NCBI GenBank assembly: GCA_963663765.2
Contig: CAXXUA010000004.1
Location: forward strand, 960,001 to 1,024,000
Direction of reading: 5' to 3'
DNA from: Candidatus Poribacteria bacterium
GTDB taxonomy: Bacteria > Poribacteria > WGA-4E > WGA-3G
Length of the DNA: 64,000 nucleotides
Below the pieces are notes generated by a model. It was not told the origin of the DNA. It saw only the letters and a list, made by a program, of their open reading frames with translations, and did no database searches. Both the position numbers and the translations under genes were made by a program. The number at the start of each line of letters is the position of its first letter. Position 1 is the first letter of the stretch. Of the stretch, positions 22,933 to 52,317 are shown in pieces.

Positions 22933-23160
22933 TAGTCCCGTAGGGACGCAATGTTTATAGAAAGACGTTATCACATCCCCTATCTTTAGTTCCGTAGGAA
23001 CGACATAGAAGGATAAACATATCGTCCCTACCAAATCAACGCCAAATGCGCCAAATCAACGGTATGAATGCCATTAAGGCATTCCCCGTATTGCATTTGG
23101 CGGGACTAAAAAGACGTGGCGATATGTATTTCTATAAACATATCGTCCCTACGGGACTGA
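22933..23160. repeat. Palindromic REP cluster (TAGTCCCGTAGGGACG...CGTCCCTACGGGACTGA) carrying nested micro-insertions
   Basis: Two forward and two inverted GTCCCGTAGGGACG units with TGTTTATAGA/TCTATAAACA arms; the third unit is interrupted at 23032-23101. Confidence 0.8.
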
Positions 23161-23200
23161 AGAATATGGTTAATATTAACAATATTTCTTTATATTGACA

Positions 23201-23344
23201 CCTAATGAAGTTTGACAATCAAAATCGGTAGTTGAATTCGTAGGGGTTGGGTTCCCCAACCCGTTTCGTTTTTGAGTTTGCGTAGATCAGGTGTGGAAGC
23301 CACGTCCCTACGAATACACAACTTGAACGTCAAAACTCATTAGG
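23201..23344. mobile_element. MITE-like element with imperfect TIRs enclosing a REP pair
   Basis: CCTAATGAAGTTTGAC ... GTCAAAACTCATTAGG; internal GTAGGGGTTGGG...CCCAACCC and ...GTCCCTAC. Confidence 0.6.
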
Positions 23345-23577
23345 ACTCTGTGTCCGCAATCTCTCATTTAATCAGTTGCGGCGGGGCACAGAGACCCGGG
23401 GAATGCCAAAAGGCATTCATACCGTCGATTTCTTGATTTCTTGATTTCGCCCTACAATGGAGAGTGGGATGTTTGTGCAAAAACTTTACACACCCTAACC
23501 AATACAATTTGCATTTTATCACAACAGATGCTATAATAGACATATCACAGAAACTACCAAATTGATAGGAGGCATAA

Positions 23578-24723
23578 ATGAAAGATTTTGCATTCACAGG
23601 CGGTAGACCCGACCCATACACATTCCCAACAGACGCTCTAATAAAGGCAAGTGAAAAAGCTCTCAAAAAATTAGGTGGACAACTCGTTAATTACCCTGGA
23701 GAAGCTGGTTACAGAGGTTTACGTGAACTCGCATCTATGCGATTTGAACGCAGGGAAGGTGTTCCACTCCCTGTAGATAATACCTCTATCACATCAGGAT
23801 CGATGCAAGCACTTGACCTTGTACTAGGTACTTTCATCAAACCGGGGGATACGGTCTTAACAGAGGAATTTACATACAGCGGTACGCTTGGGATAATGCG
23901 TCACCTAAACGCAAATATAGTCGGTATACCGATGGATTATGAAGATGGCATGAATATGGACGCATTGGAAGTGCAGCTAAAAGAACTTAAGCGGAAAAAC
24001 GTCACGCCTTCACTCATCTACACCACATCAAATCACCAAAACCCAACAGGTGCGATCCTATCGCTTGAACGTAGACACAGAATGTTAGAACTTGCCGAAA
24101 AATACGACACACTCATTGTTGAAGACGATTGCTACGGTGATATTGACTTCGTACCCAATCCGACCCCTGCATCGTTGTTTACGTTGGACACAACAAACCG
24201 TGTGATCTTCATCGCAACGTTCTCAAAAATACTCGGTGCGGGTGTCCGTCAAGGTTACTTCGTCGCAAGACAACCCTATTACGGAATGATACACAACAAT
24301 AGATGGGACGGTGGGACAAGTGCACTTGCAAGTGCGATTGTATCAGAGTTTTTCAAGGAACATCTTGAAGCACATCTTGAAAAAACAAATGCTGCGGTCG
24401 GTGCAAAATGCAAAGCTGTTACGGATACACTTGAAAAGCATGTCAGCGACCTATGTACGTGGACAAAACCGCGGGGTGGACTTTTCCTATGGATAGACCT
24501 TCCTGAAACAACCGATATGAATAAACTAAAATCGTTAGCATCAGCAAAAGGTGTCGGTTTTAGCAATGGCAGTGCATTCCATTATGCTGGTAATCCAGTG
24601 AAAGCAATACGGTTAGCCTACGCATACTGCCATGTTGACGACATTCCAGAGGGAATAACCTATTTATCAGAAGCAATCCGCACCGCACAAATCGCAGCTG
24701 TTGATGCCACCGCAGCAGATTAA
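23578..24723 (+). CDS. PLP-dependent aminotransferase (class I/II, MocR/ARO8-like catalytic domain)
   Basis: FTGGRPDP; ITSGSMQALDL; HQNPTG; IVEDDCYG; TFSKILGAGVRQG; PRGGLFLW. Confidence 0.9.
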   Translation: MKDFAFTGGRPDPYTFPTDALIKASEKALKKLGGQLVNYPGEAGYRGLRELASMRFERREGVPLPVDNTSITSGSMQALDLVLGTFIKPGDTVLTEEFTYSGTLGIMRHLNANIVGIPMDYEDGMNMDALEVQLKELKRKNVTPSLIYTTSNHQNPTGAILSLERRHRMLELAEKYDTLIVEDDCYGDIDFVPNPTPASLFTLDTTNRVIFIATFSKILGAGVRQGYFVARQPYYGMIHNNRWDGGTSALASAIVSEFFKEHLEAHLEKTNAAVGAKCKAVTDTLEKHVSDLCTWTKPRGGLFLWIDLPETTDMNKLKSLASAKGVGFSNGSAFHYAGNPVKAIRLAYAYCHVDDIPEGITYLSEAIRTAQIAAVDATAAD

Positions 24724-24794
24724 CAGACCTTTGAGCAAACCTTAAACATAAATAGTGTGACCCGCTAATATATAGATAAGCCACGGAGGAGACC

Positions 24795-26165
24795 TTGCGT
24801 AATATTATCCTATTCTCTTTAGATACACTCCGCGCGTCAAGTATGAGTTGTTACGGACATTCCAATCTAACAACGCCACACATTGACGCACTCGCAGCAA
24901 ACGCCACATTGTTTGAAAGCTGCATCAGTCCACATATACCTACGCATCCTGCACATACAACGATGTTCACGGGGAAAGATGTACTGACCCACCAAATCAT
25001 AACACAAGGCGGACAGATTAACCTATGTGAGAACAATAAGACGTTACCAGAACTGCTAAATGAAGCGGGTTACTTTACAGTTGCAGCTGACAATTTGGGA
25101 CGTTGGTTCCAACGCGGATTTCCAGAGAAACAGTACCGTGGATATAAATGGGAAACACGGTATCAAAATGCACGCAAAGCTGAAGCAGTCAACAAAACTG
25201 CAATTGAATTGTTGGAACTTGCACAATCGCAAGACAAACCTTGGTTTGCGTTCCTGCATTACTGGGACCCACACACACCATACCTACCGCCGACACCCTT
25301 TGAACGCATGTTCTATAGTGGTAACGAATGTGACCCCAACAATCGCAGTATGGATGAAGTTTATGCGTGTGAACCCTTTACAGATTATTTTCGACAGTGG
25401 ATGTGCAAACCGGACGCAAATGACCCAGACAATATAGAGAAAAAACAGCTCTGGACAGATCGAAAATATGTCAACGCACAATACGACGCTTCTATTGCAT
25501 ATATGGACGCTACTTTGGCACAACTATTCCAATATCTGTCCGACTGCAAACTGATGGAAGAGACACTCTTAGTTATCACCGCAGACCACGGAGAAGAACT
25601 CGACGAACACCAACTCTGGTATGATCACCATGGACTATATCAGACAAATTGCCATATTCCTTTGATACTACACTGTCCAGAACTAATTCCGAAAGGACAA
25701 CAGCTTGAAGGAATAGTTACCTTGAAAGACATTGCTCCAACTATTCTGGATTATGCTGCAAAAACAAATCTCTCTGAACGTGAAAATATGGAAGGTGCAA
25801 GCCTACGTACCATAATTGAAAATGGAGAAGAGAGCGGATCCTGTGATGCAATATACCTTACAGAATGTGGTTGGATGAAAAAGCGGGGATGGCAAACAAG
25901 AAAATGGAAACTGATTGTTGAAACAGGTGGTACTCCTGCAGTCTACAACACACCGGATATTGAACTCTATGATCTGGAAGAAGACCCGAATGAAATATAC
26001 AACCTCGCTGAAGAAGCAGATGACATTGTGCGACAATTGAAAAACGATATGGACAGTTTCCTAACAAAACGGTTGGCTGAAACTGGATTACCAGACCCAA
26101 CAGAAGAACAGGATATTACAATGCGTAAAATCGGAGATAAAACAAGAGCAGTCCCACTACCATAA
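24795..26165 (+). CDS. Sulfatase-like hydrolase/transferase
   Basis: NIILFSLDTLRA; TPHIDALA; PTHPAHTTMFTG; FLHYWDPHTPY; ITADHGEE; ELYDLEEDPNE. Confidence 0.88.
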   Translation: MRNIILFSLDTLRASSMSCYGHSNLTTPHIDALAANATLFESCISPHIPTHPAHTTMFTGKDVLTHQIITQGGQINLCENNKTLPELLNEAGYFTVAADNLGRWFQRGFPEKQYRGYKWETRYQNARKAEAVNKTAIELLELAQSQDKPWFAFLHYWDPHTPYLPPTPFERMFYSGNECDPNNRSMDEVYACEPFTDYFRQWMCKPDANDPDNIEKKQLWTDRKYVNAQYDASIAYMDATLAQLFQYLSDCKLMEETLLVITADHGEELDEHQLWYDHHGLYQTNCHIPLILHCPELIPKGQQLEGIVTLKDIAPTILDYAAKTNLSERENMEGASLRTIIENGEESGSCDAIYLTECGWMKKRGWQTRKWKLIVETGGTPAVYNTPDIELYDLEEDPNEIYNLAEEADDIVRQLKNDMDSFLTKRLAETGLPDPTEEQDITMRKIGDKTRAVPLP

Positions 26166-26220
26166 ATCAAATTTTAGCAGATTGCTGTGGGAGGGATCTT
26201 CGTTTCCTGACTGAAAAAAA

Positions 26221-27270
26221 ATGAAATCAAAAAACAATTCTTATTCCTCTAATCACACTATAATCACTTGCATTCTAATTCTCGTAGCGGTCGGTTTGAT
26301 CTTTAACGGTTGTGCTTCACTGCAAGAAGCACAACAGCGTAGAGACCAACGCTTAAAGGAAAGACGCAATACGGATCAACTCCTATTGAAACCGACTGAT
26401 GCAACCATCACTGTAAATCCAAAACCACCTCATGGCAAACCCCATGGAGAAAGTGATCACTATTCATTCACTTTCGTTGAGAACTTGCATATACACCAGG
26501 ACTTTGACGAAATTGAGGAACGTAATGCATTCGCAAAGAGTTCACTTGCATACATGGAAAGTCTTTATAGTGCTATGTATGACATTTTCGGATTTAAACC
26601 AAAGCAAAAAATTCATATAAAATTGCACAACTTGTATAAAGGTGGTAGCATGATAGCTGAGACCGGTTCATATTCCAGTTATATCATCCGCAATGGAGAT
26701 GTAACGAAGAACATTACTGACATAGAGATGGATTTTCCATTAGCCATGTTTCGATCACATGGAACACGCGTCCATGAATTGACACATGCCTTTACCAACA
26801 TCTATTATTTCCCTGTCTGGTTCTCTGAAGGCATTGCGGTCCTGATGCAGACTGAATATGCAAATGACAACTCACACCCAAAATTTGACGGCATTGACAG
26901 AAACTTAAGAGTTGGTCCCAACGGCATAAACTTATTAGAAGGCTGGCGTGGACACGGCGATCATCAGGCTGGAGCAAATATCACACAATGGCGATATAGA
27001 TATGCATATACAGTCGTGTCTGAACTTAGAAAACTGTATGGAAAGGATTTTTACATGCGGGTTTTCAAATTAATGGACGAAGATCAACTCTATAAGAAAC
27101 TTGTTGGAAGAATGTCAACAAGTTTTGTCGTCTACTATTTCAGCCAAGCCGCTGGAGAAGACCTTGTTCCATTTTTTAAAAAATTGCAGTTTGATGTCCG
27201 CAAGTTAGAGAAGGACGATATCCTACAACAAATTGAAAAGCAGAAGGAACTGATACGGAGGCAACTATGA
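26221..27270 (+). CDS. Lipoprotein with a gluzincin/peptidase-MA-like zinc motif
   Basis: Lipobox FNGC; HELTH followed by PVWFSEGIA. Confidence 0.65.
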   Translation: MKSKNNSYSSNHTIITCILILVAVGLIFNGCASLQEAQQRRDQRLKERRNTDQLLLKPTDATITVNPKPPHGKPHGESDHYSFTFVENLHIHQDFDEIEERNAFAKSSLAYMESLYSAMYDIFGFKPKQKIHIKLHNLYKGGSMIAETGSYSSYIIRNGDVTKNITDIEMDFPLAMFRSHGTRVHELTHAFTNIYYFPVWFSEGIAVLMQTEYANDNSHPKFDGIDRNLRVGPNGINLLEGWRGHGDHQAGANITQWRYRYAYTVVSELRKLYGKDFYMRVFKLMDEDQLYKKLVGRMSTSFVVYYFSQAAGEDLVPFFKKLQFDVRKLEKDDILQQIEKQKELIRRQL

Positions 27271-27887
27271 TTCTTACACAACAGAACGCACGTTCTCGCT
27301 ACGAACTCTTGCTACCGATTTTTGCATTGATATTCATTTCGGCTTGTGCTGTCGGGCAGCAATGGAGCGAAAACTACGCTCGTATAGCTGGCACACGGTC
27401 AACTGACCCACTCATCATTGATGGTAACTACAATACTGTAGGTCAAACACAGTTTGTTAACATCTTAGGAATTTATAACCTTGATGCACATCCACCATCG
27501 GAAGTTTCTGTCAAGTTACCTGAGGAAAAAAAGATCTACCGTGTTGTAATCCATACTACGAACATGCAAGAATTTAAGCTCATGGCACGTAATAAAGAGG
27601 GGAAATGGAAGCAAATCCATGACCAACGCAGCAACAAAGATAAAAAAATTGATATACGTTTTAATCCTCCTCCTACTACCGATGCTATCAAATTAGTCGT
27701 CCATAAAACTTCAGATGACGCAGCACAAAAGCGAAAAAACCTAAAGATCGAAAGAGAAAACCGTGTTGCGCCAGACGGTACAGTTCGCCGTGGACAGATG
27801 GTCTACAAAATATTAGGTCCCTTAAAAGCTACTGCAAAAATCGCAGAAATGGAACTTTACGGTTTCGCAGAAACGACTAAAAACTAA
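27267..27887 (+). CDS. Hypothetical lipoprotein, possibly a discoidin/galactose-binding-like fold
   Basis: Lipobox ISAC; IIDGNYNT; TTDAIKLVV; IAEMELYG C-terminus resembles F5/8-type domains; overlaps the upstream stop codon. Confidence 0.5.
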   Translation: MILTQQNARSRYELLLPIFALIFISACAVGQQWSENYARIAGTRSTDPLIIDGNYNTVGQTQFVNILGIYNLDAHPPSEVSVKLPEEKKIYRVVIHTTNMQEFKLMARNKEGKWKQIHDQRSNKDKKIDIRFNPPPTTDAIKLVVHKTSDDAAQKRKNLKIERENRVAPDGTVRRGQMVYKILGPLKATAKIAEMELYGFAETTKN

Positions 27888-28181
27888 ATGATACCCAAAA
27901 TTTAATGCAACGATTACGAATCATAAGAACGGTCATAAACTTTCACCCCAAGGTAGCTGCGGTTTCCTAAAGCCACTGTAACCTTTGATATAACGCGAGT
28001 GATTCTGACATGCAAGAACACCTTAAATAGACGTTTACAATTACCCAAATTGTTATACCCAACTCACCTTTAATTTAACAATTAGTTGTATTTAATATAC
28101 GTAATTCTGCGTTAATACTCTTATAAAACACGGAAATTTGGCATAATTCCTCTTTTTTCTTCAAAATTAATGAAAAAAAGT

Positions 28182-28210
28182 TTGCATTTAATTAATTTTT
28201 GTGTTAAACT
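28182..28210 (+). promoter_or_regulatory. Putative sigma70 promoter with extended -10
   Basis: TTGCAT (28182), 17-nt spacer, TGn-TAAACT (28205), with an upstream A-tract. Confidence 0.55.
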
Positions 28211-28528
28211 ATATTTCACGTTTTTATTGTTTTGCGTTTCTTGTAATGGTTAGGTAATTCTACTTTTCGGAGAAACTCGGTATTCAATTTCTGTCATTTT
28301 AGACGGAGAGAGAACAAGATATCAGTCCTTATATAAGAAACAGACAATGTTGAAATGCAAAGTAACTGTTGTATCAGAGGTTCTAAAATCTGGTTTTTAT
28401 TTTCAAATTATCTATTATAGTATAAACAAATATACATTTTCGTCCTTCGGATGGTACGGTTTCCTAACCCCACTGAAACAGAATGTATAATTATTTCTAT
28501 AATCTACCATAGATGAAAGGAATTACAA

Positions 28529-28867
28529 ATGAGTGATGAAGTTATTTCCCGCATAAAACAACGGCGACGTGAACTTAAGATGACGCAAACTGAATTGGCA
28601 AAAGCCGCGAACCTAACACCCGCAGCTATCTCCCAATTTGAGTCGGGTACCAGAAAACCTTCTTTTAATACGCTTTCCAGTCTGTCAGATGCATTGAAGG
28701 TAACAACGGATTATCTACTTGGGAAGAAAGAAAGAGGCTACGAAGACCTAATGGCAGACCCAAGGCTTAATGTCATGTTCAGAGGAATGATGAATTTTAA
28801 AGAGAGGGATAAAGAAACACTCTATGAGTTCTACAAATTTCTCAAAACACAAGCGGATTCAGAATAG
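28529..28867 (+). CDS. XRE-family HTH transcriptional regulator
   Basis: RIKQRRRELKMTQTELAKAANLTPAAISQFESGTRKPS...LKVTTDYLLG. Confidence 0.92.
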   Translation: MSDEVISRIKQRRRELKMTQTELAKAANLTPAAISQFESGTRKPSFNTLSSLSDALKVTTDYLLGKKERGYEDLMADPRLNVMFRGMMNFKERDKETLYEFYKFLKTQADSE

Positions 28868-28877
28868 AAAGATTTCG

Positions 28878-29747
28878 ATGATTCTGAATAGGCGTTTGCG
28901 CAAGGCGAAGGGTAGCCCCGCCGCCGTGGCATGGGGTATCCTTCGCGACTTGCGTGTACAAGATTTTCCAATAGACCCTCGACGAATCGCATCTGAACTC
29001 GGAATTGCACTCTGGGAAAAAGAACTCCCTGGCACCTATGATGGATGTCTGATGCAGGTAGGCAACGCATGGGGTATCCTCATCAATGCAAGCATACGTT
29101 CAGAAGCACGGCGAAAATTTACTATCGCACACGAAATTGGACATTACCTGTTAGAGCGCAATACATCACGTCCCTGTTCGCTTGATGAACAATTAAATAC
29201 TATGCTGTCTGAGCAGGAACAGAATACAGAACAAACGCGGTCACAGAAACAGGCATACCTTTTGAGTGAACAGCGAGCAAACCGATTTGCCGTTGAACTG
29301 TTGATGCCCTCCCCCATCTTTATGGCTGACGCATCCGCACTAACACAAGTCGGCTTACCAGCAATTTCATCGCTTGCTACACAATACGACACCTCTTTGA
29401 CAAGCACCGGTATCCACTACACAAGGTTGTCCGAACATGTATGTGCCATCGTGTTTTCTGAAGGAGGAATCATCCGCTATTTCGCATATTCTGATGGATT
29501 CCGAGAGAATAAGCATTGCTTTCTGGTAAACGGACAACCCCTACATCCGAATGCATTAGCAACCCAGTTTACCAATACCACACGCATTGGTGAGTTAATA
29601 GATGAAGTACCGCTACATTATTGGTGCAAACCAAACGAAAATCAAACCAATGTAGACAATCCAGAGGACACAGACAACACCATTATTGAACATTCAAGAC
29701 GAACTTCCCGCACAAAACAGGTCATCACCTTCCTCCACCTACCCTGA
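28878..29747 (+). CDS. ImmA/IrrE-family metallopeptidase (DUF955)
   Basis: RRKFTIAHEIGHY; EQRANRFAVELLMP; YDTSLTS; C-terminal GAF-like region. Confidence 0.88.
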   Translation: MILNRRLRKAKGSPAAVAWGILRDLRVQDFPIDPRRIASELGIALWEKELPGTYDGCLMQVGNAWGILINASIRSEARRKFTIAHEIGHYLLERNTSRPCSLDEQLNTMLSEQEQNTEQTRSQKQAYLLSEQRANRFAVELLMPSPIFMADASALTQVGLPAISSLATQYDTSLTSTGIHYTRLSEHVCAIVFSEGGIIRYFAYSDGFRENKHCFLVNGQPLHPNALATQFTNTTRIGELIDEVPLHYWCKPNENQTNVDNPEDTDNTIIEHSRRTSRTKQVITFLHLP

Positions 29748-29955
29748 TATATAGTAGACTTGAGGATTGATTGGACAATATGTTTGGTTGGGTTAGGAAA
29801 CCGAACCAAACATATTGCCTAAGTAATTATGGATTTCACTATAAAACCTATTGCATTAGACCCAAAATACCTATTCTCTTAACACCGTATTCTGAAGCGA
29901 GATATTCCGATTTTTTCCCGATAAAATCTATGTGGTTTTCTCTTTAGTAATATCA

Positions 29956-32097
<2,142 letters not shown>

Positions 32098-32308
32098 TTA
32101 TGATCTAGTTGCGTGTATTGCATCGGAAACGTCCGCAGTGTTGAAGTAACTGAGACATGCGAATCTATATGATGCATAGGTGAAACGTTTTGATATTTAC
32201 ACGAAAGTGTTGACCAATAAAGAATGGTGAGTGTCAACAATGAGTATGATTATCTTATACGTTGGTTGTATATTCTCTGTTATTCCTAAACTTTGTTATG
32301 GGTCATCG

Positions 32309-33112: not shown

Positions 33113-33379
33113 TGTATAAAAATACTCTTCTTGTTTTAATCATGTGTGTATCATGATACCACATCTGAATATAGATTACATAGAAGAATTTAGGTAGAAC
33201 AAAAGTTGGAACGCTTCAGTATGTACTCTGTTTCTAAGGATCATTCGTACTTGACACTGCAAAACCTATGTGTTAACCTATACAAATGCAGTACTAACGA
33301 GTTAGGAGAATTAAAAAGTCTGAATTTATCCATTGTGTGCTTCGTTGCTATTGTTGCACTATAGCCTTGATAATATGAT

Positions 33380-42786: not shown

Positions 42787-43018
42787 TCAGCCCTCCAATA
42801 TTTCTATATAGGTATGCGCTGAAACCAAAATATGTTCGTCAGTATAGCATGGTTAACAACCACCGTAACACTGATTCACTTTCGGTCATCTGCATATCAC
42901 CACGGCTCTATTGTTGATATTTTCAATTCTTAAGTGTTGGGATGAATATATATTTATGAATACTTATGTAAATCGGTTAACGCGCTTTCGTAGTAATATG
43001 CATCATGCGCGTTCCCCG

Positions 43019-43044
43019 TTGGCGCGATACTTATATCGCGCCAA
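43019..43044 (-). terminator. Hairpin downstream of the BMC-H gene (possible terminator or stability element)
   Basis: TTGGCGCGATA-CTTA-TATCGCGCCAA perfect 11-bp stem; weak U-tract. Confidence 0.45.
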
Positions 43045-43065
43045 GATCCAACACCGATAAGGGTT

Positions 43066-43371
43066 TTACGCATCTTCATCGTCATCTACGGACGCAGCTT
43101 TGCCAGTAAGAATTGATTCAACATCGGAATGTGGACGTGGAATGACATGTACGGATACCAGTTCACCGACTGCTTTCGCAGCTTCTGCACCAGCATCTGT
43201 AGCGGCTTGCACCGCACCGACATCACCGCGAACCATCACGGTAACGAAACCGCCGCCAACCTGTTCTTTGCCGATTAACTTGACGTTAGCGGCTTTGACC
43301 ATCGTATCCGCAGCTTCAACTGCACCTACCAATCCGCGTGTTTCAACCATTCCTAAAGCTTCATTGCTCAT
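43066..43371 (-). CDS. Bacterial microcompartment hexamer shell protein (PduA/EutM-like)
   Basis: [27 protein letters not shown]...[10 protein letters not shown]...SVHVIPRPH; acidic tail. Confidence 0.96.
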
Positions 43372-43758
43372 ATTTTTTGCTCCTTATGTGTCTTATAGAG
43401 TAGAATGCAAGGCACTGCACACTATATATTTGTCGCAGTCCTTACATTTGATAAATGTGTCCTTTTAAATGATACTATAAATGTGATTTTTCTGCAAATC
43501 AAATTTTGCATTAGGGTGTGTAAAGTTTATTATTTATCTGAACCAGGATATTCAGGATAATCAGATTACCCAGCTAAGCGTCTGATGCGTTATTTACTGT
43601 TCTCATGAAACACTTTCCTAAGCAGACCCACATGTTGGTATAATCCTGTATATCTACTAATCCTGAAGAATCCAATTTCAGACAAGAAGAGCTTCACGAC
43701 AAACCCATTCTATGTTTTCAGTGCTTTCAGCATCTATTGATATTCAGACAGACTCAGT

Positions 43759-45057
43759 TTAAAGACTTCGGTACCGCAATTGCCACAACCACCACAGAAT
43801 CGCAGGAATCAACGGCAGCGCAACCATCCCCCACAAAACAACCTGTACACCAAACAGATCCATCATTGCCCCAACAATCGCGGTTGCAACAGCCCCCATC
43901 AATGTAAAAAGTGCAAACTCAGTACCAAAAATCCGACCACGAATCTCATTTGGTGCGCGTTGCAACAGCAGCTGCGTAGAAAAGACCCATGCAATGCCCC
44001 CACCAACACTTCGTACGAACCCACCGAAAACAACGAGCGGTAAACTCAACAGTGGTGCAACAAGCAACAATCCCGCCGATCCAATCAGATACCCGAGACT
44101 AATACTACTTCGAAGCGGTTTGTCACGGTCTCCTGTCCAAATTCTCGCTACTATCGGTCCAATCCCGCTCCCAACCCCACCCATACAATACATCAATCCT
44201 AAACTGATCGCACCATCAATCCCAATAACGAAGTGGGACTTTGCAATTTCAACCTGTGCTACCTGAAACCCAGCAGATAATAACAATGCTATTGCACCTT
44301 TGTGTAACGATATAAATAGAATATCGGGATGACGGACCATATACCCAATGGCAGAGAACTTTGACCATTCTTGTTTAGATGTCTTAGAACCAATAGGATT
44401 CGGTAACTTTATCTGTAGCAGCAAAAACGCAGAAACAAGAAACGTAAATCCATCAATTATAAAGGCAGTATGTGCGCCATAAAGACCTGCGGTAACCCCT
44501 CCTATTGCAGAACCCAAGGCAAGCATCACGGACCAAGTTGTCGCGCTCAATGCATTCGCTGTTCCCAGCTCAATTTGCTCCGTAATATCAGGCAGAATTG
44601 CACTACGCGCAGGACTAAAAAAGCCACTCACCCCAAACAGCAGTCCAACAAGGATATAGAGTAGCAAAATGTCGTTTTCGTCACGGACAAAGAGAAATCC
44701 AAAAACGAGCAGTCCTCTCACAACATCTGTGATGATTAAGAGATGCTTTCTGTTGTACCGATCCGCACAAATACCAGCAATCGGTGCAACGCAGAACGGT
44801 GCAAGCATCCTAATCGTAAACAGCAACCCTAACGCAAAACTCGAATCTGTCAGATTACGTATCAGGATAGCAGACGAAATGATGTTAAACCAATCTCCTA
44901 ATAGACTGACGACCTGTCCCGACCACAACCAACGAAAATTTGAATTCGTTTGAAGTAACTCAAAGTACCCGACTATCCTGTCTCTCTTAGCAGCCCCATC
45001 CTTTGGGTCAAAAGTACTATCAGTCATCTCAGTAGCTGCTTGTTCTTTTTCAGCCAA
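43759..45057 (-). CDS. MFS transporter (DHA3/MFS_3-like)
   Basis: NFRWLWSGQVVSLLGDW; motif A AGICADRYNRK; about 12 TM; APNEIRGRIFG. Confidence 0.9.
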   Translation of the reverse strand: MAEKEQAATEMTDSTFDPKDGAAKRDRIVGYFELLQTNSNFRWLWSGQVVSLLGDWFNIISSAILIRNLTDSSFALGLLFTIRMLAPFCVAPIAGICADRYNRKHLLIITDVVRGLLVFGFLFVRDENDILLLYILVGLLFGVSGFFSPARSAILPDITEQIELGTANALSATTWSVMLALGSAIGGVTAGLYGAHTAFIIDGFTFLVSAFLLLQIKLPNPIGSKTSKQEWSKFSAIGYMVRHPDILFISLHKGAIALLLSAGFQVAQVEIAKSHFVIGIDGAISLGLMYCMGGVGSGIGPIVARIWTGDRDKPLRSSISLGYLIGSAGLLLVAPLLSLPLVVFGGFVRSVGGGIAWVFSTQLLLQRAPNEIRGRIFGTEFALFTLMGAVATAIVGAMMDLFGVQVVLWGMVALPLIPAILWWLWQLRYRSL

Positions 45058-45251
45058 CTCTAACCCCCACCACTATTTGACAGACTTTGTGTTGCTGTTT
45101 ATTTTGATCCCCTCACCAGCAACTCCTGTTAGATATAACATCAATCACCCCTTTCTCGTAGGCATTATAATGACCTAAACTCTATGATATGATACGCACA
45201 TACAAATACCATAGATACGAATTATTAGCCATCTCTCACAGTTGAATTTGT

Positions 45252-45354
45252 TACAACCTATCTCATAAATGGTAGGAGGGGTTTCTAACCCAGATTTACT
45301 CAACACGTGAGCCGGTGAATTTGCAAATAAATCGTATTTATGAGATACGCTGTA
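45252..45354. mobile_element. About 100-bp MITE-like element containing a REP (copy 1)
   Basis: TIR ACAACCTATCTCATAAAT / ATTTATGAGATACGCTGT; an inverted homologue lies at 49417-49517. Confidence 0.7.
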
Positions 45355-45431
45355 GTTATCCTTTTCGTTTAGTGTTGATATGAGATGGCTTATCAATGAT
45401 AAGGAAGCAAATTTGGCAGCTAATGATATAA

Positions 45432-45650
45432 TAACGCAAGTTGCTACCTATAAGGTTTAGACGAATAAACACCGTTTTTTTTAGAGTATAATACACTTTT
45501 CGGTAGTATTTGTAGCACAAACTTTTAGTTTGTGCATCTTTATGACGCAAACTAAAAGTTTGCGCTACAAAATATAGGCTATTTATCAACACTTTTTTGA
45601 TAATAGATGGTGTTTCTATGTCTAATTATTGTAGGTAGCAACTTGGGTTA
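45432..45650. mobile_element. About 218-bp MITE (copy 1)
   Basis: TIR TAACGCAAGTTGCTACCTA / TAGGTAGCAACTTGGGTTA; internal inverted GTAGCACAAAC REP pair; near-identical copy at 52392-52609. Confidence 0.85.
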
Positions 45651-45726
45651 TAATAATAAATCACCGTGAATGATAACAACATATAGTCATCTCTCACGGT
45701 GATTTTATAGAACTGATTCTTTGAAA

Positions 45727-46101
45727 CTAAGGATATTGTATCCCTAATTTACGACACATCTTACGGATTTTATTGATCGCTCCACCCACTTTGCGTCCAT
45801 CACGTGTCACCCCAAAAAGGTGTTGACTAACAACGCGACGAGAAATCCCCAGAATATCACCAATTTCCTCCTGTGTTTTCCCTTCGTAGAAATAAAGTTG
45901 GACACAATCGTTTTGTCGGTCAGTGAGCTCCTTAGAAATGATCTGGTGTATCTGTTTGATGACTTTCTGACGTTTCACTTGACGCGCCTTCGTATACGTA
46001 TTCGGCGCAGACTGATACCACAAGTGGTGTTCCGTAGTCAGTTGATCAAAATACTCGGGTGGCACCGGAATTTCCCAAAAATCCGGATTATACTTAGACA
46101 T
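45727..46101 (-). CDS. Small sigma-70 region-4 HTH protein
   Basis: ELTDRQNDCVQLYFYEGKTQEEIGDILGISRRVVSQHL...GAINKIRK. Confidence 0.8.
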   Translation of the reverse strand: MSKYNPDFWEIPVPPEYFDQLTTEHHLWYQSAPNTYTKARQVKRQKVIKQIHQIISKELTDRQNDCVQLYFYEGKTQEEIGDILGISRRVVSQHLFGVTRDGRKVGGAINKIRKMCRKLGIQYP

Positions 46102-46522
46102 AGATAACGACTCCTCAAAGTGAGGCTTAAGCACCTATGCCATTTCAATTCATTATCTTGAGAATGGACAGAGGTACCATCGCCTACAAAACAAACCGTT
46201 TATATTAGGGGTGGTAAAATTCATAAACAACATAATGGTACCCTCCTTATTAGAATTTATTATTTGGAAAGATGTTAATCAAACATCTGTGTAATATGAT
46301 TACATGCTTTCTACATAAATTAGTATACAAGAAAACATAAAAAATAACAATACTCATTTTAACACAATTCTGGATGCGCTGCATTAATAAACTTGGAAGT
46401 TGGCTCGATGCTGCAAACCCAACATGCTATGAAACATTACACAACCTGCTATTAATTTCAATTTGACTATATAATCCAAATATGCTACTCTAAATAAAAT
46501 TTGGAAATGGAGCTGCATAAGA

Positions 46523-48151
46523 GTGACACACTACACCCAGAACAAGGTAATACGTTCTATATTCATGTTGTCTCTTATTCTAATCTTGTTTTCGGTGAAA
46601 GGACTCACTTCTGAAATTCAGTTTGTTGATGTAACAGAAACAGCAGGGATCAATTTTATACATGCAGGGGGTATAGATCATCGTGTAGTTCCCGCATTGG
46701 TCGGTTCTGGTGTTGCATGGTGTGATTATGATACTAATGGCACACTTGATTTATATATCGTAAACAGTGCTATCGCAAGACCTGAACCCGATACAATTCT
46801 ACCCCAAAACGTGCTGTATCGGAACAATGGCGATGGGACATTTACGGATGTAACTGACAAAACCGGTGTTGGTGATACAAGTTGGGGCATGGGCTGTGCC
46901 TTTGCTGATTATGACAACGACGGTGATCCTGACCTTTATGTTACCAACTACAAGGCAAACATTTTTTATCTAAACAAAGGGGATGGGACATTCAAGAAAT
47001 TCACGTCTGGTGCAGGAGCAATTGGACATACGGGATTTGGATCGGGCATCGCATGGGCGGATTATGATGCTGATGGGTTTCTTGACTTATATGTAGGTAA
47101 TTATATTGAATATAAGAAAGTTCCACAAGGGGATGAAGTATTCTTTCCTTATGATTTCTTCGGACAAGAAAACGTACTTTATTTGAACAAAGGGGATGGT
47201 GGATTTATTGATGTTACAGATGCTGCAAAAGTAAATGGTGGGTTTCATCTAACACTTGGAATCGCTGCTGCTGACTATGACGATGATGGTGATGTAGATA
47301 TTTATCTCGCAAACGATACTGACCAGAACATTCTATATCGCAACGATGGTGAAATTACTTTTACGAATACGAATCAACCGGATGCAAGAAGCAGAACGGG
47401 AGATATCCGCAGTGGAATGGGAATCGCATGGGGAGATTATAATAATGATGGAACTTTAGACTTGTTCGTCACAAATTGGCTTGATGAAAACAACGTACTA
47501 TACCGGAACAACGGAGATGGCACTTTCACAGATGTTTCAGCAAAAAGCGGTGTTTTTGAGTCTGGTCTTGGGAAGACATGTTGGGGTACTGTGTTTTTTG
47601 ATGTAGATAATGATACAGACTTAGACCTATTTTTCGCAGCAGGACATATTGATCCCGCGTCTTGGGAAAGCCATGATCAAACGGATGTTCTGTTACGAAA
47701 CAATGGAGATGGAACTTTCACCGACATATCAGAAGATGTGGGATTGCAACAGCTTGATCCAAAAGGAGTCGGAAGGGGAGTTGGTGCTGGTGATTACGAT
47801 TCCGATGGAGATGTGGACCTAATCATAATCAACAGTGGTGGGAAACCCCGACTGCTTCGCAATGATGGTGGGAACAAACAGAATTGGCTTCACATCCGCA
47901 CTGTCGGTGTTCAGAGCAACCGAGATGGGATTGGGACACAGATAAGAATAATAACTGGAAGTCTACATCAGATTCGGGAAGTAACTGCTGGTAGCAGCTA
48001 CCTATCACAAAACAGTTTGGAGGTAGAATTTGGACTCGGTGATTACAATAAAGTTGATAAGATAATTATGCAATGGCCCAGTGGTATTATACAAACATTG
48101 AATGACATTTCTGTAAATCAAACTATAGTTATAACCGAGAAGACAAAATGA
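46523..48151 (+). CDS. CRTAC1/ASPIC-UnbV family FG-GAP repeat protein
   Basis: Signal peptide; repeated DYDNDGDxDLYV and YRNNGDGTFTDV; SNRDGIGT; SSYLSQNS..FGLG; WPSG. Confidence 0.92.
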   Translation: MTHYTQNKVIRSIFMLSLILILFSVKGLTSEIQFVDVTETAGINFIHAGGIDHRVVPALVGSGVAWCDYDTNGTLDLYIVNSAIARPEPDTILPQNVLYRNNGDGTFTDVTDKTGVGDTSWGMGCAFADYDNDGDPDLYVTNYKANIFYLNKGDGTFKKFTSGAGAIGHTGFGSGIAWADYDADGFLDLYVGNYIEYKKVPQGDEVFFPYDFFGQENVLYLNKGDGGFIDVTDAAKVNGGFHLTLGIAAADYDDDGDVDIYLANDTDQNILYRNDGEITFTNTNQPDARSRTGDIRSGMGIAWGDYNNDGTLDLFVTNWLDENNVLYRNNGDGTFTDVSAKSGVFESGLGKTCWGTVFFDVDNDTDLDLFFAAGHIDPASWESHDQTDVLLRNNGDGTFTDISEDVGLQQLDPKGVGRGVGAGDYDSDGDVDLIIINSGGKPRLLRNDGGNKQNWLHIRTVGVQSNRDGIGTQIRIITGSLHQIREVTAGSSYLSQNSLEVEFGLGDYNKVDKIIMQWPSGIIQTLNDISVNQTIVITEKTK

Positions 48152-48212
48152 GAGATTTTCTCAGGAAACATCTGGTCATAGTTGAAGTTGAATTACCAAT
48201 TGTAACCAGGAA

Positions 48213-48673
48213 TATTCAGTTTTCCTAATTTTTGGATTTTTCTAAAAAGAACCCCGCGGTAGGAGCGACCCGGGGAATGCCTAAATGGCATTCATACCGT
48301 TGATTTCTTGATTTGCCGGTCGCGATTTTCTCACAAAACAAATAAAATGCATAAAACTGAAAAACCCTAAATTGAAAACAAAACATTTGACCAGAGTTAT
48401 TCAGTTTTCCTAATTTTTGGATGTTTCCAAAAAGAACCCCCCGGTAGAAGCGACCTCCCGGTCGCGATTTTCTCACAAAACAAATAAAATGCATAAAACT
48501 GAAAAACCCTAAATTGAAAACAAAACATTTGACCAAGGTTATTCAGTTATCCCAATTTCTGGATGTTCCAAAAAGAACCCCCGGTAGGAGCGACCTCCCG
48601 GTCGCGATTTTCTCACAAAACAAATAAAATGCATAAAACTGAAAAACCCTAAATTGAAAACAAAACATTTGAC
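48213..48673. repeat. Three tandem copies of a 142-bp unit, each containing a REP
   Basis: Units start TATTCAG at 48213, 48398 and 48540; the first is 43 bp longer because of a micro-insertion. Confidence 0.92.
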
Positions 48674-48768
48674 TCATAGAATGAATTAATGTATGATTCA
48701 AATGAAAATGAAGTAAAAGTTGGAAAATTATACACTTCAACTACTAATTTCAACTAATAGGAGGGAAA

Positions 48769-49410
48769 ATGCAACATAAAATATTTTTTATAATGTTATG
48801 TGCTATATTTATCACGGTATTTGCTTTTGATGGTATTCCAGCAAAAGAGATACGAGTATGGGGAGGTAAACAAAATGATTATACCGATACTAACGGAAAT
48901 GTCTGGTACGGTGGGCAGAAAACGAAAGAGGATTGGGGTGGCTGGATCAAAAAGGAACCCCTTACTGCAGAAGTTCGGGAACTTACAGCTGCAGCCAGAA
49001 AACTTGCAATGGATGAGGGCTACGATGAAGAACTCTTCTATGCTGTGAGTTGGGCACAATATCCAGATATAGTTGAGGTTGATCTGAATACAGGTAGAGG
49101 CACTTTTGATGTAACCTATCTCGTTGGGGAACACTGGTCACCTAACAATAGGGGTTTTGATATTATTATTGAAGATAAGATTGTAGAGGCACTCTATATT
49201 ACCCCTGGCGATGATGAAATTGATATAAAACGATATGAAGGCATTCAGGTTAATGACACAGTGATGAGTCTTGTATTTTCTGGTAATCCTGAAGCAGGAG
49301 TGACTGATACAAACGGAATGTTCAGCGGAATAGAAGTTGTTCCTTCCAGATTAGCAGTTGATCCAAAAAAGAAGTTAACAACAACATGGGGCACATTAAA
49401 ATCCCAATAA
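48769..49410 (+). CDS. Secreted malectin-like protein with a C-terminal AVDPKKKLTTTWGTLK tail
   Basis: Signal peptide; GG..YTDTNGNVW; GTFDVTYLVGE..RGFDIIIED; FSGIEV. Confidence 0.7.
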   Translation: MQHKIFFIMLCAIFITVFAFDGIPAKEIRVWGGKQNDYTDTNGNVWYGGQKTKEDWGGWIKKEPLTAEVRELTAAARKLAMDEGYDEELFYAVSWAQYPDIVEVDLNTGRGTFDVTYLVGEHWSPNNRGFDIIIEDKIVEALYITPGDDEIDIKRYEGIQVNDTVMSLVFSGNPEAGVTDTNGMFSGIEVVPSRLAVDPKKKLTTTWGTLKSQ

Positions 49411-49416
49411 AATTAC

Positions 49417-49517
49417 TGCAACGTATCTCATAAATGCAAGATTGGACAATATCACCGGATCGTGTTTCTGGTTAATTGGGGTAGAAAGCCCTCCTACTAT
49501 TTCTGAGATAGGTTGTA
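49417..49517. mobile_element. About 100-bp MITE-like element (copy 2, inverted)
   Basis: Reverse complement aligns over its whole length with 45252-45354. Confidence 0.7.
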
Positions 49518-49523
49518 ACATAA

Positions 49524-50183
49524 ATGGAGGTAAATATGAAATTACTGAGTATTTTGTCAATAATAATGCTTCTATCGGTTGTGATAGCTGTGGATATGCA
49601 ATCTGCTGAAGAATACCGAGTAAGAGGTGGAAAAGCAGACGACTTTACCGACTCACAAGGCCGTGTATGGCGTGGAGCACAACAAGCTGACCAAGCATGG
49701 GGTGGTTGGATTGAAACAGAACCCCTAACCGCTGAAGTTGCAGATCTGACTTCTGATGCGCAAGCACAAGCAGCAGAAGCTGGGTACGATGCTGAGCTGT
49801 TTTATGCGGTCAGTTGGGCGCAGTATCCTAATACTATAAAATACCAGTTAAAAACTGGCAACGGCACTTTTGACGTGACCTATCTCGTTGGGGAACACTG
49901 GTCACCTAATAATAGAGGTTTTGATATTATTATTGAAGATGAAATTGTAGAGGCACTATATGTGACGCCTGGTAATCATGAAATTGATATTAAGAAGTAT
50001 GATACAATTGTTGTCGCTGATGGAACACTTGATTTGGAATTCGCAGGAAATCCAGATGCTGGTACTACAGACACAAATGCAACCTTCAGTGGACTTGAGG
50101 TGATTGAAAGTGTTAGCACTGCTGTAGACCCGAAAGAAAAATTAACAACTACATGGGGGACATTGAAAACCATTCGTCAATAA
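49524..50183 (+). CDS. Secreted malectin-like paralogue with an AVDPKEKLTTTWGTLK tail (start probably MKLL)
   Basis: Highly similar to 48769-49410; shares GTFDVTYLVGEHWSPNNRGFDIIIED. Confidence 0.7.
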   Translation: MEVNMKLLSILSIIMLLSVVIAVDMQSAEEYRVRGGKADDFTDSQGRVWRGAQQADQAWGGWIETEPLTAEVADLTSDAQAQAAEAGYDAELFYAVSWAQYPNTIKYQLKTGNGTFDVTYLVGEHWSPNNRGFDIIIEDEIVEALYVTPGNHEIDIKKYDTIVVADGTLDLEFAGNPDAGTTDTNATFSGLEVIESVSTAVDPKEKLTTTWGTLKTIRQ

Positions 50184-50200
50184 TCAAAGTATGTAACAAT

Positions 50201-50239
50201 AACTAACCGCGGTATGTTTTATACCGCGGTTAGTTTTTT
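50201..50239 (+). terminator. Rho-independent terminator
   Basis: AACTAACCGCGGTAT-GTTTT-ATACCGCGGTTAGTT followed by a T-run, between convergent genes. Confidence 0.85.
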
Positions 50240-50262
50240 GCGATCTATTTGCGAGTAAGGTT

Positions 50263-51054
50263 TCATTCCGGTTTGGGTGTTGTTAAATCACCACTTAATA
50301 TTGTTGGACACCAAAACTTCTCAATATATTCAATAATCAACTGCGTGCCTTCTTCATGACTAACATAAGGTGGCTTAAATGGATTGTACATTGCATCCGT
50401 TAGATCACGCGTCAAAACACAGTTGACTCCCCAACGGACCATCTGCTTTATTGCAAATGAACGACCCAATACACACATATTCGTATGGACACCCATAAAG
50501 ATGATATTTTCTATCCCTCTATGTGAAAGCAAATTGTAGACCTCTTGTCCATTATCACTAATGGTATCAGAATCATCAATATCAATCGCTGGATGTTGAC
50601 GGTGCCATGCTTTGTAACTCTCAGTCTCACCCGTATCCGAACCACCATCAGAAGCATCAACAGGTTGTGGTGGATCAGGGATTTCACGTTCTTTTGGTGG
50701 TTCAGCGTACGGAATTTCAAGCACAGACTTACGCGCAGGATGATATTCATAAAAATCCAGTGTATCAGAAGGTGCGTGGATTATATGCACCCCGCGTTCA
50801 CGCGCACGATGCAACACAATATTCATTCTCGGTGCCATTACATTCACACGTTCAGTCGCACCCCATGACCAGTGTTCATTCCACATATCAACAACAAGAA
50901 TCGCAGTTTCACTCACCTTCCAGTCAACCTCTTTCTCAACAATACGCCACCCATTTCTACCAACTGTCCGTGCATCTTGTGTCCGCACAGAAAGTGTTAC
51001 AGTCTCATCAGAAGGTGTAGCGGAAAAAACGTTCCGTGCTATATCAAAGTTCAT
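50263..51054 (-). CDS. Isochorismatase/nicotinamidase-family cysteine hydrolase
   Basis: ETAILVVDMW; GVHIIHAPS; GVHTNMCV; LTRDLTDAMY. Confidence 0.85.
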   Translation of the reverse strand: MNFDIARNVFSATPSDETVTLSVRTQDARTVGRNGWRIVEKEVDWKVSETAILVVDMWNEHWSWGATERVNVMAPRMNIVLHRARERGVHIIHAPSDTLDFYEYHPARKSVLEIPYAEPPKEREIPDPPQPVDASDGGSDTGETESYKAWHRQHPAIDIDDSDTISDNGQEVYNLLSHRGIENIIFMGVHTNMCVLGRSFAIKQMVRWGVNCVLTRDLTDAMYNPFKPPYVSHEEGTQLIIEYIEKFWCPTILSGDLTTPKPE

Positions 51055-51100
51055 AGATATATTCCTCCAATAAATACAAGTGTAACCAAACCTATTTAAT

Positions 51101-51308
51101 CAGGACTTACGCAATAACGGTAGGCGGTGAATGCCTAAATGGCATTCATACCGTTGATTTGGTGCTTTGTAGGCGGGGAATGCCAAAAGGCATTCATACC
51201 GTTGATTTCTTGATTACTTGATTTGGCGCTGGAAACCTATAAAAAGCTGATAATTACATCATTTTCATCATAATTCTTGATTAAAACAAGAAAACTACGT
51301 AAGTCCTG
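51101..51308. mobile_element. MITE with CAGGACTTACG TIRs (copy A)
   Basis: CAGGACTTACGCA ... CGTAAGTCCTG with TTAAT on both flanks (5-bp TSD); contains a REP carrying two micro-insertions. Confidence 0.8.
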
Positions 51309-51330
51309 TTAATAAAGAAACCTTTAAATA

Positions 51331-51801
51331 TTAGTCTTGTAATCCCTTCCACATTACATAAGCATCCTCACCATCACTATAATATCTCTTACGTACATCG
51401 CAAACTTCAAATCCAAATTGCCGGTAGAGGCACCGTGCTGCGCTATTTTTCACAGCTACCTCAAGATACACCTTCTTTCCTGAGTGCCTCCTGACAACAC
51501 TTAATGCTGAAGCCAATAAATATTTACCAACACCTTGCTGTCTATAATCTGCGGTAACAGCGATATTCATTATATGTGCTTCATCGCGAACAATGTAAAA
51601 CACTACATATCCAACGACTTCATTATTCAAACGTGCAACATAGCAAAAAGTACTCTTTTTAGGAAAACGGAGTTGTCTTTTAAAAAACGATATGTGCCAA
51701 GGTTCAGGAAAGGAAGCATTTTCAATCAGCATCACCTGTTTAAGGTCTTCCTGTCCCATCTGATCAAAAACTATATCTGGAAAAGGTTTCTCAATTATCA
51801 T
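51331..51801 (-). CDS. rimI: Ribosomal protein S18-alanine N-acetyltransferase
   Basis: IENASFPEPW; DEAHIMNIAV; RQQGVG; YLEVAVKN; RKRYYSDGEDAYVM. Confidence 0.9.
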   Translation of the reverse strand: MIIEKPFPDIVFDQMGQEDLKQVMLIENASFPEPWHISFFKRQLRFPKKSTFCYVARLNNEVVGYVVFYIVRDEAHIMNIAVTADYRQQGVGKYLLASALSVVRRHSGKKVYLEVAVKNSAARCLYRQFGFEVCDVRKRYYSDGEDAYVMWKGLQD

Positions 51802-51860
51802 TCGTGGAATTTTATCACAATCAATTTGGCATGTCAAGAACATCATCTTAAAATATTAAA

Positions 51861-52317
51861 CAGGACTTACGCAAAAACGGTAGGCGGGGAATGACTAAAT
51901 GGCATTCATACCGTTGATTTGGTGCTTTGTAAGCGCGCACCCGATGGTAGGCGTGCTTTGTAAGCGCGCCCCCGACGGTAGGCGTGCTTTGTAAGCGCGC
52001 ACCCGATGGTAGGCGTGCTTTGTAAGCACGGTATGCACATCAAGTCCCAATAGCGCGCTTACAAAGCACGCTTACCATTGCCTATGACATCTACCACAAA
52101 TTCTATTGACAGATGCCGAAGATTGCTATAAGATAAACTCATAATGAACTCATAACGAGTAACATCTAATCATTGTCACCTGCTTCGGAATACTGAAGAT
52201 TTAGTTACCTTCTCTGCGCCTACTCCCTACTGGTATTTGGCAGATGATTTAGCAAATGGGGGAGGATCAGTTTCCGTGAGTGGAACCCGTATTGATGATG
52301 ATAGTGCGTAAGTCCTG
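51861..52317. mobile_element. MITE with CAGGACTTACGCA TIRs (copy B) carrying a REP array
   Basis: CAGGACTTACGCA ... TGCGTAAGTCCTG; four tandem GGTAGGCGTGCTTTGTAAGCGCGC units plus an inverted copy (52053-52076). Confidence 0.8.

Follow-up and report, generated by a model that had tools for sequence, protein, structure and literature searches.

How does a piece of DNA a few dozen nucleotides long, without any coding capacity, come to lie again and again inside the hairpins of other repeats? This question is raised by a stretch of 64,000 nt from a Candidatus Poribacteria bacterium (GenBank assembly GCA_963663765.2, contig CAXXUA010000004.1, positions 960,001 to 1,024,000 of the forward strand), which was analysed at its full length and is called the window below. 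An earlier note on the window had pointed out tiny hairpins that carry a TTGATTT-type tail and interrupt palindromes. These hairpins with their tail, termed the module here, were traced in the window, in the source genome (G000; 6.35 Mb, 15 contigs, about 41% G+C, 97.8% complete) and in related genomes. The module is very probably a lineage-restricted, non-coding element that was inserted repeatedly into hairpins without target duplication, and whose copies were then mostly amplified as passengers of their hosts.

The family-1 module begins with GGGG (or GGTG), followed by a 7-bp stem (GAATGCC/GGCATTC) enclosing an AT loop of 4-5 nt, by ATACC and by the tail GTTGATTT; in the window copies, up to two more (C)TTGATTT units come after GTTGATTT. 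The hairpin core measures 27-28 nt and the whole module, which is non-coding, 36-51 nt. The constant unit is C plus GGGG..GTTGATTT, with the C included on the 5' side; among 115 distinct copies from the various species, 91 have this C in front of GGGG, where it pairs with the first tail G. Folding as single-stranded DNA gave -8.2 kcal/mol (z -5.0) for the 36-nt unit and -8.3 kcal/mol (z -4.8) for its complement. With a unit of 36 nt upwards and no encoded protein, the module is non-autonomous and far below the size of a typical miniature inverted-repeat transposable element (MITE), as had been proposed.

The source genome contains 437 exact palindromic cores (874 matches on both strands). With up to two substitutions allowed, 608 oriented hairpins were obtained, and these were grouped into 472 clusters. 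A single tail unit follows 259 of the 608 hairpins; two units follow 145, three 28, four 11, and five and six units one hairpin each, while the 163 hairpins with no tail unit are mostly inner members of stacks. Loop subfamilies were dominated by TAAAT (173), AAAA (163), TTAAT (67) and ATAA (42), besides others. The same tail is found behind a different stem in family 2 (131 tail starts) and in two minor stem families (12 and 16 tail starts), and a longer composite hairpin family has the 5' and 3' ends in common with family 1.

Within the window, the six family-1 copies and the second-stem element that holds one of them were all found where the earlier note had placed them, and a search with up to three substitutions revealed no further copy. 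The exact core pattern matched five times (0.00 expected from 100 shuffles), the copy at 51886 being missed because of one stem mismatch, and the double tail twice (0.02 expected). The tail 7-mer occurs 23 times in the window, 6 of them behind a hairpin. On the minus strand, the family-2 module at 23032-23101, with one tail unit, occupies the C^G of its host CGTCCCTAC^GGGAC; read on its own strand the junction is GTCCC^GTAGGGAC, and an empty host copy is present at 23144-23157. This module folds with -17.7 kcal/mol (z -4.4). Nested in its loop at ..ATAC^GCGC.. is the family-1 copy at 23052-23087 (minus strand, loop TTAAT, one tail unit), whose host class comprises 63 clusters; for 43 of them the rejoined flanks of 20+20 nt occur exactly elsewhere.

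The remaining window copies lie on the plus strand in repetitive extragenic palindromes (REPs). The copy at 23398-23448 (loop AAAA, three tail units, the first a variant) is hosted by a minus-strand GTAGGGCG.. REP, and the empty alleles gagacCCCGCcctac fit either a 35-nt insert at C^C or a C^G insertion with a discrepancy of 1 nt. The copy at 48272-48315 (loop TAAAT, two tail units) sits in the loop of a GGTAGGAGCGACC..GGTCGCG REP with empty sister repeats at 48443-48466 and 48583-48606; its junction is off the empty loop by 1-2 nt. A GGTG variant with one tail unit at 51126-51161 fills the 5' site (GGTAGGC^GTGC) of a REP of the family termed REP-A within a MITE, a context found in 156 clusters of the source genome, and the 3' site of the same REP-A (..GTAGGC^GCGC..) holds the copy at 51175-51225 (loop AAAA, three tail units), with 40 clusters in its context and existing empty GCGC alleles. 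The copy with the stem mismatch, at 51886-51921, occupies the 5' site of the unit that opens a tandem REP-A array; directly behind this unit, at 51946-52030 on the plus strand, come three empty ones (GGTAGGCGTGCTTTGTAAGCGCGC), and a further empty unit is located at 17265-17289 (plus strand). Empty sites had been claimed earlier for these hosts. Those at 17265, 51946, 48443 and 48583 stood, and for the second element so did the one at 23144; what lies at about 12979 is only a diverged relative. When the window junctions were set against genome-wide empty alleles, exact C^G insertion was obtained for five of the seven (23032, 23052, 51126, 51175 and 51886) in place of the six counted before, the copies at 23398 and 48272 departing from it in the manner given above.

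For the genome-wide comparison of filled and empty sites, GGGG..TTT plus 1 nt was removed, and an empty paralog was counted if it reached at least 60 nt beyond the junction in both directions. Such a paralog was found for 419 of 471 clusters, with at least 99% identity for 13, at least 97% for 49 and at least 90% for 128 clusters. Filled and empty partners of 99-100% identity extend across 160-240 nt, and the best pair in the source genome is identical at 240 of 240 positions with 0 gaps. The rejoined flanks recur exactly elsewhere for 170 of the 471 clusters at 12+12 nt, for 105 at 20+20 nt, for 25 at 40+40 nt and for 3 at 80+80 nt. In the strict test with 12+12 nt, at least one empty paralog was obtained for 172 of 295 single copies; nearly all of the other 123 still lie in recognisable REP-like hairpins, and a few are unique.

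Exact junction classes were GGTAGGC^GTGC (5' site of REP-A), ..GTA(A/G)GC^GCGC (3' site of REP-A), ..CCATAC^GCGC (family-2 loop) and CTACCC^GACC. No target duplication was present at the junctions, the 3' junction being slightly variable. Extragenic hairpins received the module in their loop or 5' stem, at C^G or sometimes at C^C or C^T, and C^G is the only target feature common to the sites. GTAG-type REPs, the second hairpin-plus-tail family and the module's own copies served as hosts. The orientation of the module relative to the host repeat is single in every host class and in every context listed, and no reverse-oriented context was among the latter. The proposal that the module targets hairpins is thus borne out: copies lie nearly always inside other hairpin repeats, in fixed orientation and without duplication. 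Insertion spoils the host hairpin, since the empty REP-A unit folds with -9.5 kcal/mol and z -3.9 and the filled unit reaches a z of -1.7. Half-sites without a nearby partner numbered 73 left and 18 right ones in the source genome. Most of the right ones are copies split by an element in the loop, so that truly 5'-truncated copies are few among the 608 hairpins.

The 472 clusters fall into 84 flank contexts, 55 of which are singletons. The three largest contexts hold 156, 63 and 40 clusters, together 259 of the 472; many copies have therefore multiplied with their host REP or MITE. This agrees with the suspicion, voiced before for the copies at 51126 and 51886, that one event had been copied by the host MITE. 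Copies with an AATA loop likewise go back to one insertion event, amplified with a larger repeat. Dozens of contexts in the source genome and many others in other species require separate insertions.

Copies also meet each other. In the stacked form the order is hairpin, C, hairpin, tail, and the loops differ in 42 of 65 stacked pairs; stacks are therefore not simple tandem duplications. Of the two-hairpin stacks, 4 have one tail unit and 68 at least two; for single copies the numbers are 231 and 92 (Fisher p = 1e-26). For this combination of stack and longer tail, no single clean insertion yields the stack from a single copy; one base must also change. Head-to-tail arrays reach 10 units in the source genome. 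Some modules were observed to have the left flank of one REP family and the right flank of another, for example at C5 +1740178, C7 +105057, C13 +381440 and C15 +481640; such chimeric flanks indicate that copies recombine with each other, joining or deleting unrelated repeats.

The micro-hairpins are themselves landing pads for other elements. A MITE of about 170 bp with AT-rich terminal repeats was seen in the AT loop of a micro-hairpin at about 89667-89850 on contig C2 (plus strand) and at about ten similar places in the source genome. On contig C15, reverse-strand offsets 258145-259887 contain an insertion of about 1.7 kb with terminal inverted repeats of about 16 nt. It interrupts the TTAAT loop of a family-1 hairpin that is nested in a family-2 element. 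With TTAA on both sides, it is probably an insertion sequence (IS) with a TTAA target.

Conservation of the hairpin was analysed with 115 distinct copies taken from the window and from 113 loci. In the stem, 92.2% of the cells were paired (20-59% in slid controls). Changes on both sides were present in 6 of the 10 pairs and in 48 cells, as against 5.9 +/- 2.2 in shuffles, none of 500 of which reached 48. Wobbles were balanced, with 11 G:T and 16 A:C, so that neither strand is favoured as the folded one. The block ATACCGTTGAT was invariant, in part through the way in which the copies were selected.

The distribution of the module is narrow. A scan for the core pattern with one genome per species yielded at least 95 stretches with at least 108 copies, nearly all followed by the same tail. 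Among the matches listed, all named ones were metagenome-assembled genomes of Candidatus Poribacteria and one was labelled 'uncultured bacterium'; 92 of the at least 95 stretches align to the source genome over at least 400 bases with 67-88% identity. The source genome thus represents a Poribacteria species separate from those scanned. A 15-mer across stem end and tail was then searched in a sample of 151 genomes of the phylum. It was present in all 37 genomes of genus g1 besides the source genome, which belongs to this genus and has 498 copies, and in 53 of 57 genomes of genus g2, hence in 90 of the 94 further genomes sampled from the two genera. It was absent from the 5 genomes of three other genera of the same family, and the 51 genomes of all other families gave a single match in one genome. 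Copies per genome ranged from 1 to 498, the maximum being that of the source genome, and the reversed control pattern gave 0 with one exception. The module is a lineage-restricted element of Candidatus Poribacteria. Of 27 doubly anchored intervals that carry the element in a relative, 22 are without it in the source genome. In the sister genus (L014 and other loci), the tail was seen to repeat as a 6-mer, TGATTC, in place of the 8-mer of the source genome's genus; the slipping unit thus differs between lineages, and the first tail word is kept.

From these features, the following movement is proposed. An enzyme acting in trans would work on the unit as folded single-stranded DNA. Having recognised the hairpin with its tail, it would cut at defined ends and insert the released piece where another folded hairpin exposes C^G in single-stranded form, in an HUH-like cut-and-join reaction as carried out by REP-associated tyrosine transposases (RAYTs) with REPs and by IS200/IS605 TnpA with its ends. 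Tail length would change through slippage of the 8-mer, with about one unit gained per stacked insertion. A duplex of 36 bp is far under the persistence length of DNA, and its ends cannot meet. We infer single-stranded handling because such a duplex is too stiff to synapse or circularise, because the CG target is palindromic and yet the orientation is fixed, and because the targets lie in hairpin loops and stems, the ends are defined and signatures of RNA are absent. IS110-type recombinases were set aside, as a 36-bp duplex cannot synapse; attC-like sites of integrons, Cas1-type integration, cuts by gyrase or topoisomerase in REPs and mimicry of relaxase nic sites were likewise entertained as ideas only and not taken up. 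An enzyme that acts in trans on folded single-stranded DNA is our best guess. Among known chemistries HUH-type cut-and-join fits best; gene content, however, does not tie the element to Y1 or RAYT genes. The account as a whole, with single-stranded DNA and an enzyme acting in trans, is put forward tentatively and at slightly below an even chance.

Candidates for the engine were looked for in several ways. A transposase gene bounded by the hairpin and tail ends, as envisaged in the earlier note, was not found, nor was any long element bounded by two hairpin halves in the source genome. An autonomous parent was rejected, as every half-site that was resolved traced back to the composite hairpin family, the MITE of about 170 bp or the one 1.7-kb IS in the AT loop. 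In the source genome, Y1 HUH genes are represented by four copies of IS200/IS605 type, whose ends are unrelated, by a fragment and by a single true RAYT. The latter, on contig C4 at about 621.6 kb, scores 122.5 bits on NF047646 (cut-off 80) and has arrays of two other REP families on its flanks. The flanks of the RAYTs of G000 and G039 and of the IS605 copies were read and contained no module; other REPs flank these RAYTs as well as the IS200-like genes in G130 and elsewhere, and at two of the G130 IS200-like copies one module lies about 390-440 nt upstream. Reverse transcription with slippage on the tail, the other engine suggested earlier, found no support: the RVT_1 domain gave no match in G000, G031, G017 and G039 (416 copies), and one match in G021. 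Y2_Tnp gave no match in 5 genomes; control genomes were equally blank, so that this search carries no information. Relative to flanking long open reading frames (ORFs), 147 modules are co-directional and 148 opposite, and 115 lie between divergent and 47 between convergent genes, all based on crude ORF calls.

Two further observations concern the Y1 genes and REPs of these genomes. Y1 proteins of 160-200 aa, of IS200 type on NCBIfam (85 bits), have flanks of GTCCCGTAGGGAC arrays in RAYT fashion at L114-L117, L120-L122 and L125; the GTCCCGTAGGGAC repeat is the host of family 2. L114, L115 and L116 are three copies within 35 kb on contig C27 of G130, and a hairpin-less tail word stands just upstream of each gene. 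In the source genome, a 14-mer from the GTAGGGACGATATG-type repeat flank occurs 661 times and another from REP-A 1308 times, with one RAYT only; several large REP populations seem to be without a cognate RAYT.

A number of results weigh against the proposed cut-and-join. In five host classes, filled sites depart by 1-3 nt from the most frequent empty allele: TC or T is exchanged in the REP-B loop, T or G in two classes and AG in one, and one class fits a 35-nt insert at C^C. The base 3' of the tail is variable as well (G in 379, C in 71, A in 16 and T in 6 of the 472 clusters). Such irregular junctions are unusual for conservative cut-and-join, unless the true pre-insertion alleles were unsampled. 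No HUH gene was tied to the element. Y1_Tnp is present in 137 of 151 genomes, including genera in which the element was not found. No Y1 match was obtained in G031 (one contig, 92% complete, 191 copies of the 15-mer), G017 (4 contigs, 97% complete, 112 copies), G021 (110 contigs, 94% complete, 132 copies) and G146 (73% complete, 44 copies), and the RAYT model gave no match in G031, G017 and G021. These three genomes still hold many copies of 95-100% identity as well as tandem arrays. At the RAYT and IS200-like loci inspected, no module was located at the gene ends. Orientation relative to GC skew gave an odds ratio of 0.45 with p = 2e-5 when copies were counted as independent, but p = 0.22 per 50-kb window, and is not used as evidence here. 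By gene content, the Y1 or RAYT engine suggested in the earlier note is poorly supported and not coupled to the element. It is conceivable, though somewhat unlikely, that movement depends on an enzyme class which has so far had no link with transposition and which differs from reverse transcriptases and Y1 HUH enzymes alike, possibly a housekeeping single-strand nuclease/ligase or a topoisomerase-like enzyme. Such an enzyme would read the folded 27-nt hairpin with its tail and splice the unit into the C^G of further folded hairpins. If so, the smallest mobile DNA known would be transposed by a new mechanism, in principle common with the small repeats of Nostoc discussed below.

Among the rival accounts, template switching ranks first, a passenger-only history second and RNA mediation third. 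In enzyme-free copying, synthesis would stall in a folded REP, and the nascent end would switch template via a microhomology of 1 nt (C on the left, G on the right) and return. The junctions that vary by 1-3 nt, the variable base after the tail and the C shared or added on the 5' side are consistent with this, as are tails of 0 to 6 units, the element-rich genomes without Y1 and reverse transcriptase matches, and the chimeric flanks as products of recombination between copies. We nevertheless regard it as unlikely: the unit is constant and of full length in dozens of unrelated contexts, with few arm-less copies besides the loop-split ones, exact insertions with 0 gaps occur within 240-nt identical paralogs, stem covariation points to a recognised structure, and 1 nt of homology is very little guidance for two switches. 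Distinctly less probable is a history in which the module is not mobile by itself today: a few old insertions would have multiplied only along with their REPs and MITEs, and recombination and gene conversion between repeats would have shuffled them. The weight of the top three contexts, the single amplified event behind the AATA-loop copies, the chimeric flanks and the lack of Y1 or reverse transcriptase matches in some element-rich genomes would fit such a history. The 84 contexts with their 55 singletons, the many further contexts in other species, stacks that mix subfamilies, filled and empty pairs that are 99-100% identical over 160-240 nt, and copy numbers of 1-498 within two genera all argue for repeated insertion.

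RNA-mediated retro-insertion would start from a small hairpin-plus-tail transcript, with reverse transcription where the target hairpin is nicked and slippage on the tail. The variable tandem 3' tail does resemble the tails of retroelements, and the closest known elements were reportedly suggested to use RNA. This route is very improbable, since RVT_1 gave no match in the source genome, which is nearly complete and has the top copy number, nor in G031, G017 and G039, G021 alone having one; moreover, there is no bias relative to ORFs and no G:U-type asymmetry among the wobbles, 5'-truncated copies are few, and no Rfam match was obtained. In the window, the Rfam-type search gave nothing at gathering score, and at E <=5 only chance-level matches in 51000-52100. 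Least probable of all is that the module is a selected functional site (protein-binding, promoter-like or an RNA element) recruited beside REPs and not a selfish unit. In favour of this are a stem maintained through compensatory changes, the invariance of the block ATACCGTTGATT and the higher number of copies between divergent than between convergent genes. Such a site would hardly be expected to lack an orientation preference relative to genes, to be lost or absent at 22 of 27 syntenic positions, to destroy the fold of its host REP and to differ up to about 500-fold in copy number among related genomes. Repeated insertion of a folded unit, as proposed above, is preferred over these alternatives.

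The claim in the earlier note that no element with this profile had been described did not hold. The small dispersed repeats (SDRs) of Nostocaceae are very small, nested, hairpin-forming and precisely inserted into a palindrome. According to what Elhai and co-workers reportedly described in 2008, SDRs are 21-27 nt long, with three families that have a common fold backed by compensatory mutations. They are also said to be embedded in tandem heptamers or mini-transposons, to be self-nested and to be confined to one subgroup, and reportedly they were thought to move through RNA. Set beside these repeats by description, the Poribacteria module appears to be of the SDR kind. By what is described of SDRs, the likeness extends to very small dispersed hairpins in hundreds of copies with compensatory change, to self-nesting, embedding in short tandem repeats and mini-transposons and lineage restriction, and to precise insertion into palindromes without duplication, no encoded protein and no known engine. 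On the same basis, the two differ in that the Poribacteria module occurs in another phylum and targets GTAG REPs and other hairpins, not HIP1. Its hairpin travels together with a tail of 8-mer units, or of 6-mer units in the sister genus, and RNA mediation is disfavoured for it. The insertion point of SDR5 is described as lying exactly between bases three and four of the HIP1 palindrome (PMC4390886), and no SDR-like repeat is reported outside Nostocaceae among HIP1-rich cyanobacteria (PMC5861425). The passages on SDRs in the REPIN paper (PMC3116915) and in the paper on GTAG/CGTC REPs (PMC3733652) treat them only as unexplained or untagged palindromic repeats. The literature searched contained no description of such repeats in Poribacteria and nothing on small nested elements without duplication. 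In plasmid and phage collections, matches to the module were at chance level only.

Other known systems are less similar. With REPs, bacterial interspersed mosaic elements and REPINs with their RAYTs, the module has in common that short extragenic palindromes occur in hundreds of copies, act as folded single strands and form mosaics of modules; its bottom strand reads GTAT before the stem where REPs have GTAG. It differs in that it has no GTAG, with CGGGG on one side and ATACC on the other, and sits inside REPs as their parasite. It is not at the ends of any inspected RAYT and persists in genomes without a RAYT or Y1 match. Membership in the REP/RAYT system was rejected, as there is no GTAG (or CGTC) tag and no cognate RAYT flanked by the module. 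IS200/IS605 elements and palindrome-associated transposable elements (PATEs) resemble the module in hairpin-defined ends, lack of duplication, precise presence or absence and a use of single-stranded DNA that is presumed for the module, and the tail contains a pentanucleotide which we take to be the target of ISDra2. In contrast to IS200/IS605 miniatures, the module has one hairpin and not two subterminal ones, measures 36 nt and not hundreds, and has no full-length partner with the same ends; with its single hairpin, and IS605-like copies having unrelated ends, it was not classified as such a miniature.

Rolling-circle elements (IS91/ISCR, Helitrons and their non-autonomous forms) are alike in that no duplication accompanies insertion at a dinucleotide or short word, and in that a short tail comes after a 3' hairpin; the tail units of the module contain a tetranucleotide that is presumably the IS91 target. 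The module is an order of magnitude smaller and has no 5' end motif, and the Y2 search in 5 genomes, with its blank control, returned no match. MITEs of DDE transposases are likewise non-autonomous, inverted-repeat, high-copy and intergenic. Unlike them, the module has neither a target-site duplication nor a parent IS sharing its terminal repeats and is too short as a duplex; a DDE-type MITE was rejected on the missing duplication and parent element. A retroelement-derived origin similar to that of short interspersed nuclear elements was rejected as well, with no RVT_1 match in the source genome and in three of four other element-rich genomes, few truncations and balanced orientation.

The movement of SDRs has apparently been unexplained since 2008, and the same kind of element is now found in an unrelated, uncultivated phylum. 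Both obvious engines, reverse transcriptase and Y1/RAYT, look unlikely. About 150 genomes, in which copy number runs from none found to about 500 with a sharp boundary at genus level, provide material for a search for the engine by phylogenetic profiles. Modules break REP hairpins, nest in each other and host MITEs and an IS; as parasites on parasites, they reshape the intergenic DNA of sponge symbionts.

Modules also break short-read assemblies at their sites. Among 14 sequencing runs listed, 9 contain part of the window, including a sponge metagenome; no RNA run was among them. In the four runs that were compared, short-read contigs stop at repeats, for example at 48241, 51145 and 51888. Apart from the repeats, two tandem paralogous genes were noticed in the window at 48769-49410 and 49524-50183, encoding 213 and 219 aa with signal-peptide-like N-termini. 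A contig of run X6 joins position 49209 to 49974, which suggests a single fused or collapsed paralog copy in that strain.

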